From Candidatus Aenigmatarchaeota archaeon (GTDB taxonomy: Archaea > Aenigmatarchaeota > Aenigmatarchaeia > PWEA01 > JACQIF01), in NCBI GenBank assembly GCA_016432325.1, contig CP066684.1:128001-192000 (forward strand): DNA of 64,000 nt, given 5' to 3'. A program made the translations under genes and the position numbers. Below, one piece after another: positions 26,751-36,241 of the stretch; position 1 is the first letter of the stretch; every line of letters starts with the position of its first letter. Under the pieces are notes generated by a model. The model made no database searches and was not told where the DNA came from. It was given only the letters and a program-made list of their open reading frames with translations.

Positions 26751-29000
26751 CTACTCCAGAATTATCGGTTGCTGGCCGTAAGGACCGTATGTGCGGCCTT
26801 TGAGGGAGGATATCTCGTTCTCCAGTCTCTCGATGCGGGCCAAGAGCTCTGCCGTGTGTTCGGGGCCTGTGCGCTCGGCCTCTGCAGCGACACGCGCCTT
26901 GAGCCTCTGCACTTCTTCGAGTTCTGCGCGCAGGCGACGCGCGTTCTGATCGAGGTCGCTGTGGACGCGCTGCACGTCGCTCTCTATCTGCCTCCTTATG
27001 TCGTCGACGCTGGCCACGGCACGCGCCTGTATCTTCTCTATCTCGCTCTCCGCCTGCCTCTTCTTGCGGTCCAGCTCTTCCGACAGCGCGAACAGCACGT
27101 TTTCGACCTTTGCCGTTGCGAGAGCCTCGGCGTCCTGCGTAAGTATTTCGCGCACGCTCTCCTTGAGGTTTCTCTGGACACCTCCGTATTTTTCGTCCAT
27201 TCTGCCTTCCAGCGCGTGCGCGCGGCTGTCGACGCGCTGCGCAACCATCGGCTCCAGGCCGGTGCGGAACTGTTCAAGGCGCGCCTTTGTTTCTCCGCGT
27301 ATCTCTTGCAGGCGCGCTTCGAACTTGCGCGATGCGGCCTCTGTGGCGCCGCGTACCTGTCCTGTCTGTTCGCGTACCTCAGAACGCATCGCATCGAGGG
27401 ACTCTTTGAACTCCTTGCGAAGGTTCTCCTCGCCCGTCCTCTGAAGGGCGAGCACGTTGTCTATCGCGTCAAGTTTCCTCTGGAGGTCTGAAATTGAATT
27501 GAAGTGTTCTCTCGTTATGTCGGCCAGAGACGAAGCGACAGAGGACTGCAGGGCCTCTGCCTTTTCCGCGTGTGATTGTTTGAGATAATCGAGCTGCTTG
27601 TTGTATTTGCCGTCCATGGCGTTCACGTGCGAACGCAGGGACTCTGCGATGCTGATGACCTCTTTCTTCATCGCTTCGGCCGTCTCGACGACCTGTTTTT
27701 CCAGTTCGCGGTCGGCTATCTCGGCGCGCGTCCTGGCGTTTTCAACAGAACCTTCGAAAGCCCTCATCTGGGAGTCCATCGCGTCGAACCTCTGCTGGTG
27801 TTGGACGGTGGAGTCGGCAACGGCCCTGTTCACCTCGCGGGAAAGCTTTTCGTCAAAGCCCTTGTTTTGAAGGTCCACGAGGTTTTCGAGATATTCTATC
27901 TTGCCGTCTATCTTTTGGAATACTCCTTTCTCGTCGAGCTGCTGCTCAACGAGCGCCGCGATTCCCGAGCGCAGCGACTCCTTCTCCGAATTGAGGTCCT
28001 TTATCACGGCTGCGAGCGTTTCGTTGACGTCCTTGAAGTTGCCGCTTATCTTCAGGAGCTTCGTGTTCATCGATTCCATCATCCTGTTTTCCAGAGCGGA
28101 CTCGCTCTCGGCCATCGCCGTTTCCATGCGTTCCAGCCTCCCGGCAAGCCCGTCGTTGGCGACGCGCAGGGCGGAATCCATAACTTCCAGCCTTCTCGCG
28201 AGTTCGATGAGTTTGGCCCTCTGTTCCTCGGACACGCGCGCCGTGTACAGCTTCTCCTGTTCGAGCTCCTTGTCCATGGAGGCTTTAGCGCGCGACACCG
28301 AAGCCTCCGCGGCAGAACGCACGGCATCCTTCATCGCGTCTGTCGCTTTCGCGATTTCAGCGGAGACGTACTTCTTGGTGCCCGCCTCCTGCAGCGACGC
28401 GACATTCTCCAGGGAGGTCATCCTGGTTGTGATGTCGCTGACGACAGCGCGATTCTCGTCAAGCGACGCCCTGAGCGCAGCGGCGAGTTCGGTCCGCCTT
28501 TCGGCAAGAGTCTTGTCCAGGGCGTCTATGGAAGAGTCTATCTTCTTGTTCAGCGCGGCAATTCCTGCGGCCATTTCGCGTTCCACGACTTCGCGCGTTT
28601 CCTTATCGCTTTTTCCAGACTGCGCTTCGATGCGATCGAGCCTTATCTGAAGATCCCTGAGTTCGGTGGCGCTGTCTGCGCTCGTCTGTTTCAGCCTTGC
28701 GAACGCGTCCTTCCTGAACGCATCGAAATCCTGCCGTATGGCCGAGGTTCCCTTTGCGATGCCCTCGGCAACGCTTTTTGACACATCGGCTTCGAACCCT
28801 CCGACTGTGTTCTCGAGCCTGCGGAGCTTGTCTGAAACCTCCTTCCTGAGGACGTCCAGATGCGCTGCCTGTTGGCCTTCCGTTTCGGACAGGCTGTCCG
28901 CCTTCCTCTCGATGTCATCGAGCCTTTTCTGAACGGCCGTGACCTTCTCAGTGACAGACTCAGTCACGTCCACGAGCCGCTTGACTATGCTGTCTTCCAT
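26751..29000 (-). CDS. 749-aa coiled-coil protein with no recognisable globular domain
   Basis: Heptad-like E/A/L/R/K composition throughout; C-terminal QQPIILE; SD GGTGA. Confidence 0.85.
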   Translation of the reverse strand: MEDSIVKRLVDVTESVTEKVTAVQKRLDDIERKADSLSETEGQQAAHLDVLRKEVSDKLRRLENTVGGFEADVSKSVAEGIAKGTSAIRQDFDAFRKDAFARLKQTSADSATELRDLQIRLDRIEAQSGKSDKETREVVEREMAAGIAALNKKIDSSIDALDKTLAERRTELAAALRASLDENRAVVSDITTRMTSLENVASLQEAGTKKYVSAEIAKATDAMKDAVRSAAEASVSRAKASMDKELEQEKLYTARVSEEQRAKLIELARRLEVMDSALRVANDGLAGRLERMETAMAESESALENRMMESMNTKLLKISGNFKDVNETLAAVIKDLNSEKESLRSGIAALVEQQLDEKGVFQKIDGKIEYLENLVDLQNKGFDEKLSREVNRAVADSTVQHQQRFDAMDSQMRAFEGSVENARTRAEIADRELEKQVVETAEAMKKEVISIAESLRSHVNAMDGKYNKQLDYLKQSHAEKAEALQSSVASSLADITREHFNSISDLQRKLDAIDNVLALQRTGEENLRKEFKESLDAMRSEVREQTGQVRGATEAASRKFEARLQEIRGETKARLEQFRTGLEPMVAQRVDSRAHALEGRMDEKYGGVQRNLKESVREILTQDAEALATAKVENVLFALSEELDRKKRQAESEIEKIQARAVASVDDIRRQIESDVQRVHSDLDQNARRLRAELEEVQRLKARVAAEAERTGPEHTAELLARIERLENEISSLKGRTYGPYGQQPIILE

Positions 29001-29022
29001 TGAATATCACCGACTTCCATCG

Positions 29023-30408
29023 TCACACCTTCAGCCTTCTTTCCAGCGATTCAAGGTCGCGCATCAGGGACTCTTCCTCGCCCTTCTGCTTGGCCAGAAC
29101 GTCGGCGAGCTGCGCCTTTATGTCTTCCGTTGATTTGGCGAGCCTGTCGATTTCGTCTCTCTGATCCGTGACGGCAAGGCGCAGCGTTTCCGTCGTCGCC
29201 TTGGTTTCCGCAAGCTCGTTGGATATCTCGTCGAATATCTCCTGTTTAAGAATGTTGGCCGAATGGTCAAACATCTCGGCGAACCTGTTGGTGGCTTCGT
29301 TGAGCTTGTAGTCGAACTTGCCTTCGAGATTCTCTTCCACGGTTTCTATGCGCTTGACGCGGTCCTGCACGTCGATTATTACCGACAGCGCGCTTTCCCT
29401 GAGGCGTTCGGCCTCCTTCTTGAGTTCTGAGAGTACTCTCTTCTCGGAGCCGGCCAGCGCTTCCTTGGTCTCCTTCTCGGCGTCGGCGGCCTTCCGCTGC
29501 ATCTGGTTTATGGCAGAAGACGCCTGGTCTTCGGCGCGGCGCCGGACGGCGGCCATCTCGTTCTCCGTCGCGATCATCGCCTCGTCCGCCTTCTTGCGTG
29601 CGTCTTCGGCTACCTGCGCGAGCGAACTGCCGATGAACTGTCTTATCGCCCTCTCGGAGACGCGTTCGTCGACGGCAGTGACTTGGTTGGTGAGGGACTG
29701 CAGGAGATTCGCGAGGCGTTCGGCTTCCTCTGTGTGGAGCTTGAGGGTCTTTTGCATGAGCGCGAGCTCCTCCTTGCTGCTCGTTTGAGACAGCCTAGAC
29801 TGCAACTCTCCTAGCGCAGAATCCGTGTGGTTGAGCCTGGATGACAGCGTGGACTGCATCCGTTCCAGGTCTTCGGTCCTTGCCGCGGTGCGCGTCTTGG
29901 CTTCGAGCATCCTTATGGATTCGTGAACGGTTGCCTCGGTTGACGCGACGCGCGCGTCCAGCGCCTTCATGCGATCTGCGATAGAGGCGACATCTGCCAT
30001 CCTGTTTTCTAGCGCGCGCGTCTTGTCGTTGAGAGTCTGAATCTCCGACAGCCTGCCTTCCACGGAGCGGACGCGCTCGAGTAAGGGCGTCACGTCAGGA
30101 GGCTGTCGCGTCTCCAATGACCTGAACCTCGCGTCGGCGCCTGTCAGGGAACTCTGAAGGTTGGATTCCATTGATTGCACGCGTTCGTTGAGAGAAGAAA
30201 CGGATTCTAACGTTGATTTGATGTTTTCGGCTTCCTGGCGCGCCACTTCAAGCTGTCTGCGGATTTCGACCAACCCTTCGCTTTCGGAAGGTCTCGTCTG
30301 CTCTACTTCTCCTATCTTCTTTTCGAGCGCCGCGAGCCTCTCTGCCAGAGTCACCTGCAGTTCGGCCAGTTCGCCTATCTGATTGACCAATTCGTCTACT
30401 CCATCCAT
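29023..30408 (-). CDS. 461-aa coiled-coil protein
   Basis: Heptad-like L..R...LE pattern throughout; TGATG coupling to the upstream gene. Confidence 0.85.
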   Translation of the reverse strand: MDGVDELVNQIGELAELQVTLAERLAALEKKIGEVEQTRPSESEGLVEIRRQLEVARQEAENIKSTLESVSSLNERVQSMESNLQSSLTGADARFRSLETRQPPDVTPLLERVRSVEGRLSEIQTLNDKTRALENRMADVASIADRMKALDARVASTEATVHESIRMLEAKTRTAARTEDLERMQSTLSSRLNHTDSALGELQSRLSQTSSKEELALMQKTLKLHTEEAERLANLLQSLTNQVTAVDERVSERAIRQFIGSSLAQVAEDARKKADEAMIATENEMAAVRRRAEDQASSAINQMQRKAADAEKETKEALAGSEKRVLSELKKEAERLRESALSVIIDVQDRVKRIETVEENLEGKFDYKLNEATNRFAEMFDHSANILKQEIFDEISNELAETKATTETLRLAVTDQRDEIDRLAKSTEDIKAQLADVLAKQKGEEESLMRDLESLERRLKV

Positions 30409-30692
30409 CAGCGCTCACCGACGCTTTTTCTGAGAGCACGCAATATCTCTTCCTCGTCTCCGAGAACGCTCTCCACTATCTCGGATTTTATGCTGTCCGC
30501 CGACTTGAGCCTGCCTTCCATGCCGTCGATTCTGCTTTCAAGCATGCGCACCTTTCGCTTGAGCTCTTCCAGCATGGATGTGAGATACTCTACGTCTTTT
30601 GAAGGCGCGGCGTGCGCGCTTCCGAGTTCTTCCCTGACCTCTTTCAGGGACTCTTCCACGGCTTCACGCACGGCGTCTTTAAGGGTTCCCAT
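30408..30692 (-). CDS. 94-aa coiled-coil protein
   Basis: SD GGTGA before ATG 30692; coiled-coil core. Confidence 0.75.
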   Translation of the reverse strand: MGTLKDAVREAVEESLKEVREELGSAHAAPSKDVEYLTSMLEELKRKVRMLESRIDGMEGRLKSADSIKSEIVESVLGDEEEILRALRKSVGER

Positions 30693-30712
30693 GAACTTCA
30701 CCAATTTCCTCG

Positions 30713-30795
30713 TGGGATGTACGAGAACCACGTTCTCGACATGTCGAAATTCCACGGAATTTCGTACAACTTGAAATCGCATTTCATTGTTCCCA
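30713..30795. repeat. Multi-branched palindromic element
   Basis: TGGGA/TCCCA, TGTAC/GTACA, GAGAAC/GTTCTC, GACATGTC, GAAATTCC/GGAATTTC and TGAAAT/ATTTCA stems, most of them abutting. Confidence 0.8.
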
Positions 30796-30797
30796 TC

Positions 30798-31310
30798 CTA
30801 ACCACCCATTATCCTCTTGGCCTCTTGAATCTTGGAACGTATGTCGGCGATGCGTATCTCGCCTACAACAGGCGGAGGTTTCTCGAAGACAGGTTGCGCA
30901 CGTTCCGGAACGGGCGGCGCGATAACGGATGGTCTGACGGGTTCGGCCCTCTGCCTCTTGATAGCTTGCACATCCGCCGCTACCGCGTCGATTGCCTGTT
31001 GCATCTTCTTCAGGGCTTCCACATCCGTCGTCAAGGAATCGAGCCTTCTTTGTATCGCGTTCTGGAGCTTGTACAGGTTCTCGAGGGCCCTGACAACGTC
31101 CTTGGGAAGAGGCGTTGGGGCCGTCGGCGCGCCGGAAGTCGGCCCGAGCGCCGTTCCGGTCGCCGTTGCGGGCGCCTTGCCTTCCTGGATGTTCTTGAGC
31201 AGCGACTTGAGTTCCAGTATCTCTATCTTGTTCGTAAGCGAAAGGTCTTCGAGCTCCTCGAGCTTGCTTTCTATATCTTCGAATCTTCTGGGCGTGTCCT
31301 CCCCTGCCAT
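30798..31310 (-). CDS. Coiled-coil protein with Pro-rich linkers
   Basis: Three helical segments separated by P/A/T-rich linkers. Confidence 0.8.
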   Translation of the reverse strand: MAGEDTPRRFEDIESKLEELEDLSLTNKIEILELKSLLKNIQEGKAPATATGTALGPTSGAPTAPTPLPKDVVRALENLYKLQNAIQRRLDSLTTDVEALKKMQQAIDAVAADVQAIKRQRAEPVRPSVIAPPVPERAQPVFEKPPPVVGEIRIADIRSKIQEAKRIMGG

Positions 31311-31364
31311 ATTTAAAGCACGAATTTCCCCAAATAAATGCATTATATTGGCTTTTTAGGTCGT

Positions 31365-31943
31365 TTAAACGCTTCCCGAGCCGTGCGGGAGAAACTTTAA
31401 AACCGCCGTTTTAAACGTGCTTACCCGCGTTCTCGCGAGGCCGGCCAGAATGGATTTCTTCTTCAGCCACGCGAACCACAGGGCCAGAACGGCGGCCGCC
31501 ATTCCTGCCTGCCAGAGAATGTCGTGGAAGAGGTAAAACGTTTCGACCCCGTAGAATGCCGAATACGACGTGACAGAGACGCGCACGATGTTGATGGCGT
31601 AGATTAGGGGCACAAAGACCGCGATTCCGAGCAGTTTCTCCGCAGACTTGGCCTTGGCCGCAACTATCAGTGCGGCCAGGAAGAACGCGCTCTTCCAACC
31701 CGTGGAATCTCTCGAAACCAGGACGTCAAACCCGTCGAAACGGAGCACGGCGCCATTCAACTGCGCGTTGACGCCGAACAGAGCGAGCGCCGAGTGCACG
31801 TTTTGGGCGGTGAATGTCTGGAGCCACGAAAGGTCGGCGTATGCTATGGCCAGATGGAAGGGTATCGCCATGGCCGAGAGCTTCAGAAGAAAGTAAAAGG
31901 AGTTCTCCAGCCTCCTCGTCTGCCTCTCCGACAAGTCAATCAT
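31365..31943 (-). CDS. Archaeosortase/exosortase-family protein (catalytic Cys replaced by Ser)
   Basis: V.RDSTGWKS, NIVRV, FHD and TM pattern. Confidence 0.8.
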   Translation of the reverse strand: MIDLSERQTRRLENSFYFLLKLSAMAIPFHLAIAYADLSWLQTFTAQNVHSALALFGVNAQLNGAVLRFDGFDVLVSRDSTGWKSAFFLAALIVAAKAKSAEKLLGIAVFVPLIYAINIVRVSVTSYSAFYGVETFYLFHDILWQAGMAAAVLALWFAWLKKKSILAGLARTRVSTFKTAVLKFLPHGSGSV

Positions 31944-32403
31944 GGCCTTGGCCTCTGAGGGCTTCTGTTATGTTGTGCACTCTGCGTTTCAGAAGAAGGT
32001 CTTTGAGTTCCTCGTTTTCCTCTCCCGAACTCCTTCTGTTCACGCGTTCAAATACGTCCTTGTAAGCGTTGCGTGCGATAAGTGCCGCGGCAAGGGCGTC
32101 GCGTTCATGGAGATTATGCGTTGCATATGAGGACGTCGACTCTTCCTTTGAGCGTCTCGTTGCGTCAGTCTCCGGAGAATGCACGGGCGCGCCGAAACTC
32201 GTCGCTATCTTTGAGACGAGCGCAGGCGGTCTGGCCCTGTCCGTGGCGACAATGCTGGGATGCCCGACGGACATGATGGTTTTTATTATTTCCTTCGCCG
32301 AGAAGTTTTTCCTGCTCGTCAGCAACAGCACGTTCCCATAGAAGTCCAGAGCGCACAGCCCCGTTTTTGTCCCTGGGTCTATTCCCACTATGAACCTTTT
32401 CAA
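31936..32403 (-). CDS. DUF460-like RNase H-fold protein
   Basis: IVGIDPGT.TG..ALD..G, VATD..P, N.HERDALAAA. Confidence 0.85.
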   Translation of the reverse strand: MKRFIVGIDPGTKTGLCALDFYGNVLLLTSRKNFSAKEIIKTIMSVGHPSIVATDRARPPALVSKIATSFGAPVHSPETDATRRSKEESTSSYATHNLHERDALAAALIARNAYKDVFERVNRRSSGEENEELKDLLLKRRVHNITEALRGQGHD

Positions 32404-32413
32404 GGTATCGCCC

Positions 32414-33061
32414 CTAGCCTACGGCGGCCAGCTTCTTTTCCAGGAGCAGATTCGCTATTTCCGATGGAACGTCAACGACGTCTCCCGGAGCAACGGGTCC
32501 GTATACCTTGCCGTCAGTGCCGAGGAAGCGTTCAAGTTCGCTCAGCATCCTGACTCTCAGATAAGGGTTCGCGGTTTGTACGGGAGGTTCAGGACGGACC
32601 TCTTTCTTAGTCTCCGCGGCCGTTGAACTAAATGTTTTTTCTATGGGAGGTTCCTGGACGGGCGCGGCTGACTGGGGCGGCGCTGCCTGCGTATGCGCGC
32701 CGCGTATTCTTTCGAGGCTCGCCTTTCTTACGCGTTCAAGTTCCGAGACGACGACGTCGAAGCACGTCTTCTCCGCCGGCAGGAGATTCTGAGGTGCGGT
32801 CCCTCCGCGGATGTAATTTATGGCGAGCTTCACGAGCTTGTGTTCGCGCCTGTCCATCACGTCGCGGATGACCTGCATGACGTTTTCTATTTCGCGCACC
32901 AGGCTCGGTTCCTTGGTCTTCTCGAAAAGAAGCTCCTTGCGTTTTATCCAGTCGCGGCACAGATCGTAGAAGTCTTCGGGGAGTTTCTGCAGGGCGTCGT
33001 TCTCCTTCTCAAGCCTCTGAAACCTGCGGAACGTTTCGTAAGTTATGACGTTTTCGTTCAT
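32414..33061 (-). CDS. GINS subunit (GINS15-like)
   Basis: R.EK....LQKLP.DFY, RE.KL, NLL..E and B-domain FLG.DG..YGP...GDVV..P...A..L. Confidence 0.85.
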   Translation of the reverse strand: MNENVITYETFRRFQRLEKENDALQKLPEDFYDLCRDWIKRKELLFEKTKEPSLVREIENVMQVIRDVMDRREHKLVKLAINYIRGGTAPQNLLPAEKTCFDVVVSELERVRKASLERIRGAHTQAAPPQSAAPVQEPPIEKTFSSTAAETKKEVRPEPPVQTANPYLRVRMLSELERFLGTDGKVYGPVAPGDVVDVPSEIANLLLEKKLAAVG

Positions 33062-33136
33062 CACCAGACCCCACGGGTTTTGTTCAGCGACCGAAGATAA
33101 ATATGCGATTCCACCACACCTGTCCGTGGTAAGAGT

Positions 33137-33655
33137 ATGAGGCTTTACGCGTTGCTGCTTGTCGTTCTCGCCGCGGGTTGCGTAGGAAGCACGGCCCAGA
33201 CGGGGTCGCAAACGGAACAGCCGGCGGAGACTTGGGCCGACGCGACGCTCACAAACGCACTCACAGGAGAGACTTTCGCCATATCGGACTATCGTGGTCA
33301 GATAGTCCTTCTGGAGGCCATGGCCGTCTGGTGTCCTGTGTGCGCAGAGCAGCAGGCGGAGATTGAACGCGCGCACGCGCTCGCTCCCGGTGAGTTCGTT
33401 TCCATATCCGTCGACGTCGACAATACGGAGACCGCGGAAAAGCTCAGTTCATACGTAGCGGGCAAAGGATTCGACTGGGCCTTCGCGACAGACGCGGGAG
33501 GGTTCGGCTCTTCTCTTGAAAGGCAGTTCGGTTTCCAGGTTCTGAGCGTTCCAAGCGCGCCCATAATACTGATAGACCGTGAAGGAAACGCCCGCCTGCT
33601 GCCGGGAGGCGTCAAGAACGCAGATGCGCTGGTCGCGTACGTGAGGTCTTCCTGA
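33137..33655 (+). CDS. TlpA/ResA-like thioredoxin lipoprotein
   Basis: LAAGC lipobox; WCPVC active site. Confidence 0.88.
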   Translation: MRLYALLLVVLAAGCVGSTAQTGSQTEQPAETWADATLTNALTGETFAISDYRGQIVLLEAMAVWCPVCAEQQAEIERAHALAPGEFVSISVDVDNTETAEKLSSYVAGKGFDWAFATDAGGFGSSLERQFGFQVLSVPSAPIILIDREGNARLLPGGVKNADALVAYVRSS

Positions 33656-34350
33656 TGGCGCTGGCGGACTTGGCGCTGGCCTTCACGCTGGGAACGTTTG
33701 CTTCTGCCAACCCGTGCGTTCTGCCTCTCTATCCGGGTTTCCTCGCGTACATGGCTTCGCGTTCGCGGGAAATGGGCAAAACGCCGCACGAAGGTCTGAT
33801 GGGACTCCTCGTGCTCGCGGGCGTCCTGACGATGATGCTCTTGCTGGGTCTCGCAATCTCCCTTATCGGCGTGTCGACCTCTGACGTTCTCAAAATCGTG
33901 ACGCCTGTGGCTGACGTAATGCTGATTCTAATCGGTCTCGTCCTCTTGCTCAACATCGACATCGGCTCGCGCATCCCGCAGCTGCGCGCGCCTTTGACGA
34001 AGGACCCGCTCAGAGGCTCTTTCGTCTACGGACTGCTCTACGGTCCGATCGTGCTGCCGTGCAACGCTCCGCTGTTTCTGGCGGTCTTTACGCGTTCCGT
34101 CGGCGTGGAGGACTTCTTCGGGCGGCTCGGCATCGTGCTCGCTTTCGGCTTGGGCTTCGGCCTGCCTCTATTGTTGATATCGCTGCTCGGCAAGGCGCGG
34201 CAGGGCTGGCTCGTCAGGATGTTCGCGGAGAACCATTCAAATATCAACAGGGTTGCCGGCGTAATACTGATAGCCGTCGGCCTCTACGACCTCTATCTGA
34301 CGACATTCTACCTGTCTGTGCTGCTGGCCAACCCGGCCATGCCAACCTAG
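33655..34350 (+). CDS. ccdA: CcdA/DsbD-type transmembrane disulfide reductase
   Basis: NPCVLPLYPGFL and PCNAP cysteine pair; GLG.P. Confidence 0.88.
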   Translation: MALADLALAFTLGTFASANPCVLPLYPGFLAYMASRSREMGKTPHEGLMGLLVLAGVLTMMLLLGLAISLIGVSTSDVLKIVTPVADVMLILIGLVLLLNIDIGSRIPQLRAPLTKDPLRGSFVYGLLYGPIVLPCNAPLFLAVFTRSVGVEDFFGRLGIVLAFGLGFGLPLLLISLLGKARQGWLVRMFAENHSNINRVAGVILIAVGLYDLYLTTFYLSVLLANPAMPT

Positions 34351-34943
34351 AACTTCCCTTCTGTAACGCTTATTACAGTCTGCAAATAGGTTTTTGACTT
34401 GAAATCGCGTGATACCGCTTTGTTGTAGAATACGATGTTGCCGTACAGGCAGGGGGCGACCATCGTGTCCAGCGCAGACGTGCGGTTGTAGAAGCCCCTG
34501 CACTCGCTCGTCTGCGAGAGGCTGTCGAATACGACATCATGCGTCCCTGACGCGAGGTCTCCTTCGAGCGTGCTGTAGAACGACTCGGCGTTCGCGAACG
34601 AATCAAAAACGTACAGCTTCTGCGTGACCTGGTCTATCTGCAGGACGCTGTTGGTCACGTTGTCCACGTATCTCCTGCCGTAGACGATCGTGAGGCCGTC
34701 TGTTATTCCAGGGGCTTCGTCGCTGCCGACGGCTATTTTGAGCATGGTCTTCCAGTTGAGCGGAGACCTGTACTTTGGCAGTTCGTGTGTCTGGAGCAGC
34801 AGCTCGTCGGCCGTCTTGTTGACGAAATGAGCCTCCGGTCTGGGCATCTCAATCTGTTGGGTCGGAAGAAGAAAAAAGACTGTCAGCACGGCTACCGGGA
34901 TGAGAAATATCGCGGCCGCGTACGTTATGGAAAGCGCTTTCAT
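34347..34943 (-). CDS. Hypothetical protein with N-terminal TM anchor
   Basis: N-terminal hydrophobic helix; TATA upstream. Confidence 0.6.
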   Translation of the reverse strand: MKALSITYAAAIFLIPVAVLTVFFLLPTQQIEMPRPEAHFVNKTADELLLQTHELPKYRSPLNWKTMLKIAVGSDEAPGITDGLTIVYGRRYVDNVTNSVLQIDQVTQKLYVFDSFANAESFYSTLEGDLASGTHDVVFDSLSQTSECRGFYNRTSALDTMVAPCLYGNIVFYNKAVSRDFKSKTYLQTVISVTEGKF

Positions 34944-34957
34944 AGCCCAACAGGCAC

Positions 34958-36241
34958 TCATCCTTTTATAAGCTTTCTGGAAACCCCTGCGAATGGGTAG
35001 GACACGGGATTCTTTATCTGTATCGTTTCGGTGCCGCGCTTGCACCTCTCGTCCGGTTGGCAGATGTTATACCCTGTGTAAAACGCGTCGTTTGCGCAGT
35101 TGGGCGGCAGCAGGCTCCTTCCGGTTTCTGCGCTGCGCCTGAACCAGTTCAGTTGCGTGTTCACGTACGTATCGGAGAGCGGCGGCTTGTTCTTCGCGTT
35201 CGCCTCTCGCACCGCGGCGTCTATCTTTTCCCATGGCCAGTTCATCTGCTGCAGGAAGTTAACGAGCACGAGCACGGAACGCTTGCGTCCGTCTGCGAGA
35301 CCGCCCATTATGAGTTTTATGCACGGCGGGAACACGGACTCCGGAACCTCTTTCGTGCGTTTGACGTGCTTCGTCGTTTCCTTCCTTTCCTCCTTTACCC
35401 GCGACGCGTGCCAGTCCATGGCCGCGACGACGAGGGAGTCTGCGTCGCCGCCGGGCGCGAGGAATCCTTGGGGCTTGTATTTGACGGCCCGTTCTGGAGA
35501 CGCGTATTCGATTTTGAACGAGTCTAGTTCCGTCCTGGCGAGCGGCACGCTCGCAAGCCACGTTTTCTCATTGAGCGAGTACGGAAGGCGGAACAGGTGG
35601 CGCTCGCCCCAGTTGCTCTCTATGTCCACGAACAGATACGGCGAGAGCGTGGTCGCCTGGACGTCTCCGAGCTCCTCCATCAGTTCGTGCAGCGAGCCCT
35701 TGCTCTTCTTCAGGTCTGCGAACAGCCGGTCCTTGACGGTCTCCTTGATGTACGACGCCACGATGCGCGGCACCTTGGGGAACTGATGCGTGGCGGGCTC
35801 GTAGTCTATCGTTTTGGGGAGGGACTCCCACGGGACCCCTATGTGGAAACCGCGGTTGCCCGAGAACTTCACCGTCGCCTCGACGCCGTACGAACGCAGG
35901 AGGTCGAGGACCCGCAGAGCCGCGAGCTTCGACGCATCCAGTCCTATCGAAGAGTCTATGTCTATTATCATGTCCCATCCGGTCCGCAAATCCTTCATAT
36001 CCGCGGAGCTTATCCCCGTTCGCAGCAGCAGAGGGTTCTTCCAGTGCTCCACCGTTCCGTGGAAAGAAGTGGCGCCCTTCCTCACCAGTTCCAGAATGTC
36101 GCGTTCATACACGAGCACGTTGGGGCGCGTCATGTGACCGCCGTTTTCAAGGGCGACCGATACTTCGCGGTTCTTCGCGTGAGAGAGTATCTGCTCCAGA
36201 ACAACGGGATTCGAATAGTACGTGAGCAGGTTCGTGAACAC
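34958..36241 (-). CDS. Fused DNA primase (PriS catalytic domain plus PriL C-terminal domain)
   Basis: WDMIIDID, FSGNRGFH, HLFRLPYSLNEKT, then FPPCI, DGRKR, PPNC and C.PD..C. Confidence 0.9.
   Translation of the reverse strand: MFTNLLTYYSNPVVLEQILSHAKNREVSVALENGGHMTRPNVLVYERDILELVRKGATSFHGTVEHWKNPLLLRTGISSADMKDLRTGWDMIIDIDSSIGLDASKLAALRVLDLLRSYGVEATVKFSGNRGFHIGVPWESLPKTIDYEPATHQFPKVPRIVASYIKETVKDRLFADLKKSKGSLHELMEELGDVQATTLSPYLFVDIESNWGERHLFRLPYSLNEKTWLASVPLARTELDSFKIEYASPERAVKYKPQGFLAPGGDADSLVVAAMDWHASRVKEERKETTKHVKRTKEVPESVFPPCIKLIMGGLADGRKRSVLVLVNFLQQMNWPWEKIDAAVREANAKNKPPLSDTYVNTQLNWFRRSAETGRSLLPPNCANDAFYTGYNICQPDERCKRGTETIQIKNPVSYPFAGVSRKLIKG

Follow-up and report, generated by a model that had tools for sequence, protein, structure and literature searches.

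What might four adjacent archaeal genes do when their products consist of little but helix? The question is raised by a stretch of 64,000 nucleotides (hereafter the window) of contig CP066684.1 (positions 128,001-192,000; assembly GCA_016432325.1), in which the section from 26,751 to 31,310 holds four co-oriented genes, here called A, B, C and D. The host genome is a single 875-kb contig of an Aenigmarchaeota archaeon, an assignment with which its nearest relatives by name, Aenigmarchaeota metagenome-assembled genomes (MAGs), agree. A preliminary description of the locus had rightly guessed an origin in Aenigmarchaeota and had reported four closely spaced genes of 170, 94, 461 and 749 amino acids, belonging to no known family, and the open reading frames (ORFs) are indeed found at that place and with those sizes. 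Based on the profile searches, gene comparisons and structure predictions presented here, A-D are the form, enlarged and split into four genes, that a single coiled-coil protein family without a name in Pfam/NCBIfam takes in this genus; this head-rod-tail family is, from its sequence features, widespread in the class Aenigmarchaeia. What the preliminary description missed is that the operon would be the split form of a single ancestral-type gene. We take A-D to form a cytoplasmic heteromer, a split rod that would serve as a scaffold or tether and dock by its ends, a reading to which we give a probability of about one half. The genes and the parts that carry this argument are as follows; families within the class are numbered (f1, f4 and so on).

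30798..31310, minus strand: gene A, 170 amino acids; its start is backed by five orthologues
31185..31310, minus strand: N-domain of A, residues 1-42 (..RRFEDIESKLEELEDLSLTNKIEILELKSLLK..), the conserved family head; in many families, the A profile matches the start of a small or a fused protein
30801..30863, minus strand: amphipathic C-terminal helix of A, GEIRIADIRSKIQEAKRIMGG, with a net charge of +2; conserved in five congeners and among the f4 A-like proteins
30408..30692, minus strand: gene B, 94 amino acids, helical, with an acidic N-terminal helix; GGTGA 5 nucleotides 5' of the ATG
29023..30408, minus strand: gene C, 461 amino acids; N-terminal half heptad, C-terminal half mixed or hendecad-like
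26751..29000, minus strand: gene D, 749 amino acids, Ala-rich, period 3.62; bears the family C-terminal module
26754..26768, minus strand: D tail P-I-I-L-E, the last five residues; the [P/A]-h-h-h-E ending is shared by 38 of 38 loci outside the window

Conserved ends on a variable rod

Members of the family have three parts: a conserved N-terminal coiled-coil head of about 40 residues; a fast-evolving helical rod of highly variable length, built of heptads and Ala-rich hendecad-like stretches, which appears to have grown through internal duplication; and a last coiled-coil turn, again conserved, that leads into the C-terminus [P/A]-h-h-h-E, where h is mostly Ile, Leu or Val. The head (of the type ..LE.IE.K..ELED..L.NK..I..) sits on the first or only protein of each module, and it is carried here by A; the C-terminal module, h..LE..h..h and then [P/A]-h-h-h-E, closes the last protein or, where there is one only, that protein, and D accordingly ends in QQPIILE. 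When the A profile is searched against the class, it is the first ~40 residues of A that match, at the N-termini of proteins in many other families. The number of genes is far less constant than the two ends: a single fused protein of 450-950 amino acids is found in many families, two or three genes in others and four here. The head is fused into one helical protein of 359-695 amino acids in f5, f8, f17, f20 and f34, it is more diverged in f22, and the protein of f24 is divided over two or three genes. In f4, the head belongs to a protein of 99-166 amino acids that has a Pro/Lys/Glu linker and closes with a basic helix (..RARKIKEMLRELK); a helical protein of 204-424 amino acids comes next.

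The tail was present on a helical protein in all 38 loci checked outside the window (all 17 of a first round, D of the window not counted, one more f4 locus, and all 20 of a second sample, which covered ten families), in the variants AVVLE, PRVLE, PTVLE, PIVLE, PVVLE, PVIIE, PIILE, PIIIE, PIIVE, PIVIE, PLILE, PLIIE and PVVVE. One f4 gene of 424 amino acids (G004) extends beyond the motif, the alignment setting an internal ILE at that place, and its genome is also matched, separately and more weakly, by the C-terminal profile. The loose tail motif ends only 2 of the 3,661 long frames in the genome under study. A C-terminal profile made from other families only ranks D first among the 9,318 ORFs of this genome (E = 3e-9 for a profile of 120 residues, 2.6e-3 for one of 40); because the profile still ranks D first when it is built without D's own genus, the link between D and the family is not circular. 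With longer C-terminal profiles, the ORFs of C, A and B also rank near the top of the genome. When D and a congener are included, the C-terminal profile matches 203 of 301 sampled genomes of the class (E <= 1e-3), and many of these matches extend to the last profile position. Relatives in the wider family gave no match at cutoff against Pfam/NCBIfam, and the named database relatives of the A family all come from Aenigmarchaeota. What appears to be new is a coiled-coil family that spans the class, has not been described before and is marked by a distinctive motif at its C-terminus; here it is divided over four genes.

Closer to the window, another four close relatives, 33-57% identical, share the order A-B-C-D and its tight coupling: a MAG of a congener (L006 with L007/L008), a metagenome contig from the Joint Genome Institute (JGI; L009) and the Logan contigs L027 and L028. 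The view of the preliminary description that the four genes are a unit is upheld. Both short tails that it singled out are conserved motifs: the D tail is class-wide, and the basic helix of A recurs in congeners and f4; in the close relatives, A ends in the consensus ..PPVVGE.RI.DIR.KI.EAKRIMG and D in QPII[LM]E.

Helical character of A-D

Scans of A-D against Pfam/NCBIfam found no model at or above its curated cutoff, as the preliminary description had anticipated; below cutoff, D came closest to Apolipoprotein (52 of the 90 bits required) and C to the coiled-coil arms of ASRP/SMC/Rad50. The four proteins contain no Cys and no Trp. They have no Walker A or B motif and, given that the highest 19-residue Kyte-Doolittle mean is only 0.62, no membrane segment or signal peptide, in agreement with the earlier statement that they are not SMC/Rad50 proteins. 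The lack of a signal peptide and of a membrane segment makes host attachment, one of the roles first suggested for the operon, unlikely. AlphaFold2 models D as seven long helices (~97% helix; predicted local distance difference test score, pLDDT, 52) and C as six helices (~94% helix; pLDDT 69), and the hydrophobic periodicity of each of the four proteins exceeds that of 300 of 300 shuffles, with peaks at 3.44 (A), 3.58 (B), 3.50 (C) and 3.62 (D). The claim that the genes encode almost entirely coiled coil therefore stands for helix content and periodicity, with two qualifications: about one-third of A is Pro/Ala/Gly-rich linker, and D, together with the C-terminal half of C, is hendecad-like and not heptad, the heptads of C being concentrated in its N-terminal half. 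The layout of A runs from the head coiled-coil helix through a Pro/Ala/Gly linker, a second coil and a Pro-rich linker to the amphipathic terminal helix. D, with an Ala content of 12.6%, comprises about four internal repeats of ~150 residues marked by LENVxxLQxxG at residues 197, 371, 513 and 632, and C has a single copy of this motif at 354; the local-alignment z-scores of the D repeats are 5-7.5 against composition shuffles, a type of score that is inflated for coiled coils.

The 11-residue-type periodicity of D brings in an alternative, namely that the proteins form an apolipoprotein- or late embryogenesis abundant (LEA)-like coat of amphipathic helices on membranes or lipid bodies and not a coiled-coil rod. 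D has the amphipathic helices and the periodicity near 11/3 of apolipoproteins A-I, A-IV and E; it matches PF01442 with E = 9e-14, and the sole match of its profile among solved structures, where the A-family profile has none, is the ApoA-IV chain 3s84 (26 bits, E = 3e-5). Ether-lipid genes also adjoin the operon here and at the congener locus L007, f4 having only uppS, a few kb downstream. However, the PF01442 score is well under its cutoff, the Pro-punctuated 22-mers of apolipoproteins are missing, and so is the adjacency of lipid genes in f8 and f22. A conserved head and tail, the heptad-type C and a cytoplasmic archaeal context are likewise foreign to apolipoproteins, and we consider such a coat distinctly unlikely. 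The look-alikes of D in the ESM Atlas were uninformative, and a FlaC lead from the same source (score 0.82) was dropped because FlaC_arch is not recurrent across 14 members of the A family.

Gene neighbourhood and its two readings

A-D form a tight operon with a summed length of 1,474 residues, as compared with about 450-950 in the fused relatives. Longer upstream starts are available for A (ATG at 31343) and for B (ATG at 30782); the shorter forms are retained here because orthologues of A start at MAGED or MTSED and those of B at MGTL (MGTLKD in the window). The archaeosortase stop and the start of A are 54 nucleotides apart, A and B 105, and C and D 22, while the stop of B and the start of C overlap within TGATG; GGTGA Shine-Dalgarno motifs lie 5' of B, C and D. 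A TATA-like TTTATTT stands ~25 nucleotides upstream of the A start, a spacing that would fit a leaderless A transcript. The remaining features of this region are the following.

30693..30797, minus strand: A-B spacer, a palindrome-rich element of 105 nucleotides; at most 2 nucleotides at the same place in four relatives
31332..31349, minus strand: TATA-like AATATAAT / TTTATTT in the 54-nucleotide gap between archaeosortase and A, read from the sequence
31365..31943, minus strand: short archaeosortase-like membrane protein with DSTG replacing DCTG; a conserved upstream neighbour
31936..32403, minus strand: truncated DUF460, 155 amino acids, RNase H-like domain only; part of the conserved order DUF460-archaeosortase-coiled coil

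Because B starts no more than 2 nucleotides past the end of A in all four relatives (L006, L009, L027 and L028), the 105-nucleotide spacer of the window is best explained as an insertion; palindromic and genome-specific, it looks like an inserted element outside the ancestral design of the operon. At the other end, the congener locus L007 has a 352-amino-acid Laminin_G_3 / Toxin_R_bind_N protein (1895-2953) between D and egsA that is absent from the window.

GINS, DUF460 and the archaeosortase lie upstream of A-D on the same strand, just as first reported, and the order (GINS)-(DUF460)-archaeosortase-A is also retained in the close relatives. Across the class, the commonest order is DUF460, short archaeosortase and coiled-coil gene, often with Hef and XPF farther upstream; some families have a HerA-like ATPase gene upstream and a topoisomerase-like gene downstream, both judged by eye. 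In about 24 of 40 loci (~60%), from eight families (f1, f5, f7, f8, f20, f22, f26 and f33), the archaeosortase gene is no farther than ~3.5 kb from the coiled-coil gene. With the exception of one divergent locus, it is then upstream and co-oriented, and it is often still adjacent where DUF460 or XPF has been lost. In f4, FtsY comes next after the archaeosortase, and the coiled-coil module stands behind a SpoIIM-like gene. The f24 module has pilin-like genes upstream and is apart from the archaeosortase, and the f17 and f29 loci have no archaeosortase nearby. On this distribution, the pairing of archaeosortase and coiled-coil gene is old and frequent, yet dispensable.

This recurrent adjacency invites the explanation that the short archaeosortase has the coiled-coil protein as its partner or substrate; the enzyme would recognise P-h-h-h-E and hold or process the rod at the membrane. 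Besides the near-constant upstream, same-strand position of the enzyme gene and its survival beside the coiled-coil gene when other neighbours are lost, the tail starts with Pro, like exosortase signals. The known signals, however, are composite, a motif being joined by a membrane helix and a cluster of basic residues, and they sit on exported proteins. Examined as exosortase/archaeosortase substrates, A-D show none of the features expected: they have neither an N-terminal signal nor a stretch hydrophobic enough for a membrane helix, and the tail ends 5 residues past the Pro. Moreover, the two genes are apart in f4, f24, f17 and f29, and where they are adjacent, this could be mere inherited gene order. 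We therefore hold a substrate or partner relationship to be improbable.

The archaeosortases themselves vary at the catalytic position. The Cys of DCTGWK is replaced by Ser (DSTGWK/DSSGWK) in all four aligned species of the window's genus and in three of four f22 genomes, and it is retained in f4, f5, f8 and f24; the Arg and His are conserved throughout the alignment. Since the change is recurrent and retained (the Ser-bearing proteins are that of the window at 31365-31943 and those of L006, L027, L028, L031, L035 and L036), it is not a recent mutation or a sequencing error. The f4 loci (L018-L021, L039, L040 and L042) have DUF460-archaeosortase-FtsY at one site and aIF6-prefoldin-SpoIIM-(A-like)-(long coiled coil) at another, a layout consistent with one rearrangement in which FtsY and the coiled-coil module traded places.

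The informational genes nearby suggest another role, that of a DNA-associated scaffold: a coiled coil like the arms of SMC/Rad50, devoid of ATPase heads, that organises replication or repair factors. GINS, primase and DUF460 are the neighbours here, and the HerA-like, topoisomerase-like, Hef, XPF and DUF460 genes those of other families; partial matches to the SMC/Rad50/ASRP arms in NCBIfam reach E = 4e-15 in f22 proteins. Yet all these matches are far under cutoff (e.g. 55 vs 567 bits) and cover coiled coil only. No head, hinge or DNA-binding domain was found, and the ABC-type ATPase head that defines SMC/Rad50/ASRP proteins is missing from A-D along with its Walker motifs. The genome already has SMC and a second protein with an SMC_N head (Rad50-like), and in small genomes unrelated housekeeping genes are often packed together. 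A DNA-associated scaffold is thus unlikely in our judgement. The coat, the archaeosortase substrate and the DNA scaffold each have some support in gene context or composition, and each misses a defining feature.

Several of these neighbours have features of their own. DUF460 measures 155 amino acids in the window and 90 in L027 (4084-4356) and is absent from the congener locus L006; it has 335-402 amino acids in other Aenigmarchaeota and ~650-690 in Euryarchaeota, some of these with a VLRF1-type domain (PF18859). The idea that the coiled-coil genes are the detached C-terminal part of DUF460 was rejected, as each of the five longer DUF460 proteins inspected still has a coiled coil and a C-terminal domain of its own, and the tail is at the end of none of them. 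The GINS ORF (32414-33376) is listed with 320 amino acids, and its probable start is the internal MNENVITYETF; orthologues begin MRMNESIITYETF and have 188-229 amino acids, so that the first ~105 codons are likely untranslated. Kinship of a 232-amino-acid membrane protein (34347-35045) with the pilin-like genes upstream of the f24 module was not supported (E = 0.9-1.8).

A proposed scaffold of split rods

Conserved ends, a rod of variable length, the passage from heptads to hendecads, internal duplication and the lack of any enzymatic or nucleotide-binding site together make up the pattern of a structural coiled-coil scaffold. The head of A and the tail of D share one chain in many families, so that by the Rosetta-stone argument the split products probably work together; the fused relatives thus support heteromeric assembly indirectly. 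In the mechanism that we propose, the four products would assemble into one rod-like cytoplasmic scaffold or tether, with the A head and the D tail docking onto partners or onto each other. The C-terminal helix of A, basic and amphipathic, would have one of two roles: to link A and B again by contact with the acidic N-terminus of B, or to attach to the membrane. That the genes keep their place beside a membrane archaeosortase suggests that the scaffold may act close to the membrane. A complex prediction with two A heads (residues 1-60) and the C-terminal 55 residues of D gave a score of 0.17 (mark 0.32), a value taken here as evidence neither way on their binding.

A zipper that would re-join the split pieces through basic and acidic ends is an attractive idea. 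The first protein of the split lineages inspected has a basic C-terminal stretch, which forms an amphipathic helix in f1 and f4 and also occurs in two f24 loci; the following protein opens with an acidic helix in f1 and f4, residues 1-24 of B having a net charge of -3. The f24 loci differ in other ways. In genome G120 (L023 5274-8335), zinc ribbons are found on the head-bearing proteins, and in G120 and G240 (L033 5117-8442) a third gene encodes a helical protein of 419-436 amino acids, without a Pfam match, whose start MGFL..LKKK is an amphipathic N-terminus in the style of FtsY/SepF.

Four points weigh against this proposal of a split rod with docking ends. B, C and the body of D matched the long proteins of f4 with hhalign probabilities of only 19%, 2% and 9%, respectively; since the rod has diverged beyond recognition by this method, it is the head, the C-terminal module and gene order that establish kinship. 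Among the 203 genomes, a number of the weaker matches may be generic coiled coil. The pLDDT values of D and C are low, so the models predict helices only and no tertiary or quaternary structure. As for membrane binding, the C-terminal helix of A has a best 11-residue hydrophobic moment of 0.65, but it has no aromatics, a low mean hydrophobicity and a net charge of 0 to +3, and the case for such binding is not compelling.

The closest described parallel is the DivIVA/GpsB/FilP/Scy group of Gram-positive bacteria (PMC9858780, PMC6599971). In the DivIVA-FilP-Scy series, a conserved N-terminal domain is carried on rods from <100 to >1,000 residues (PMC9858780), and A-D and their relatives likewise combine a short conserved N-terminal domain with a rod of hugely variable length, have no nucleotide-binding domain, extend heptads by Ala-rich hendecads and appear to have grown by internal and gene duplication. 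The two are not related in sequence (scans of the A family gave no DivIVA match in Pfam) and belong to different lineages, and the P-h-h-h-E tail of the archaeal family, like the division into four genes seen here, is absent from the bacterial series. The likeness is one of sequence pattern. By this analogy, the kind of system would be one already known, that of coiled-coil-rich scaffolds.

The preliminary description had also compared the operon with intermediate filaments. Long helical rods devoid of cofactor sites are indeed common to A-D, intermediate filaments and crescentin. However, intermediate filaments consist of a non-helical head, a coiled-coil rod and a non-helical tail (PMC6599971), whereas the head of the A-D family is a coiled coil and its tail a five-residue motif after a short spacer. 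PF00038 (Filament) gave no match to A-D at E <= 0.1, and a single f4 relative reached 20.4 bits (cutoff 40); membership of that family is not supported. The idea that the A tail is a MIM-type helix read by a MIT-domain ATPase, as in the ESCRT-III system, was rejected, since searches of the 875-kb genome found no Snf7 (PF03357) and no MIT (PF04212) match. The same genome has two FtsZ genes, SepF, SMC and the Rad50-like protein mentioned above; with these standard division and chromosome systems present, the coiled-coil module would be an addition to them and not a replacement. A bolder extension, which we regard as a long shot, is a class-wide archaeal coiled-coil cytoskeleton, with rods joined head-to-tail or fixed to the membrane through P-h-h-h-E and the archaeosortase-like protein acting as an anchor on the cytoplasmic side. 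Such an anchor would be a new, non-sorting use of the archaeosortase family.

A near-universal archaeal coiled-coil protein has been described (arCOG01159/COG1340; TK2157) (PMC6393860), and a shallow literature search found no cytoskeletal or scaffold role assigned to a coiled-coil-rich protein of archaea. About two-thirds of the 301 sampled genomes keep the protein although Aenigmarchaeota genomes are very small, and it therefore probably has a part in the basic cell organisation of a lineage about whose cell biology next to nothing is known. With the fused, two-, three- and four-gene forms, nature has in effect tried out in how many ways a long rod protein may be split and yet keep its function. 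The sharply conserved head and tail offer handles by which the partners of this protein may be found.

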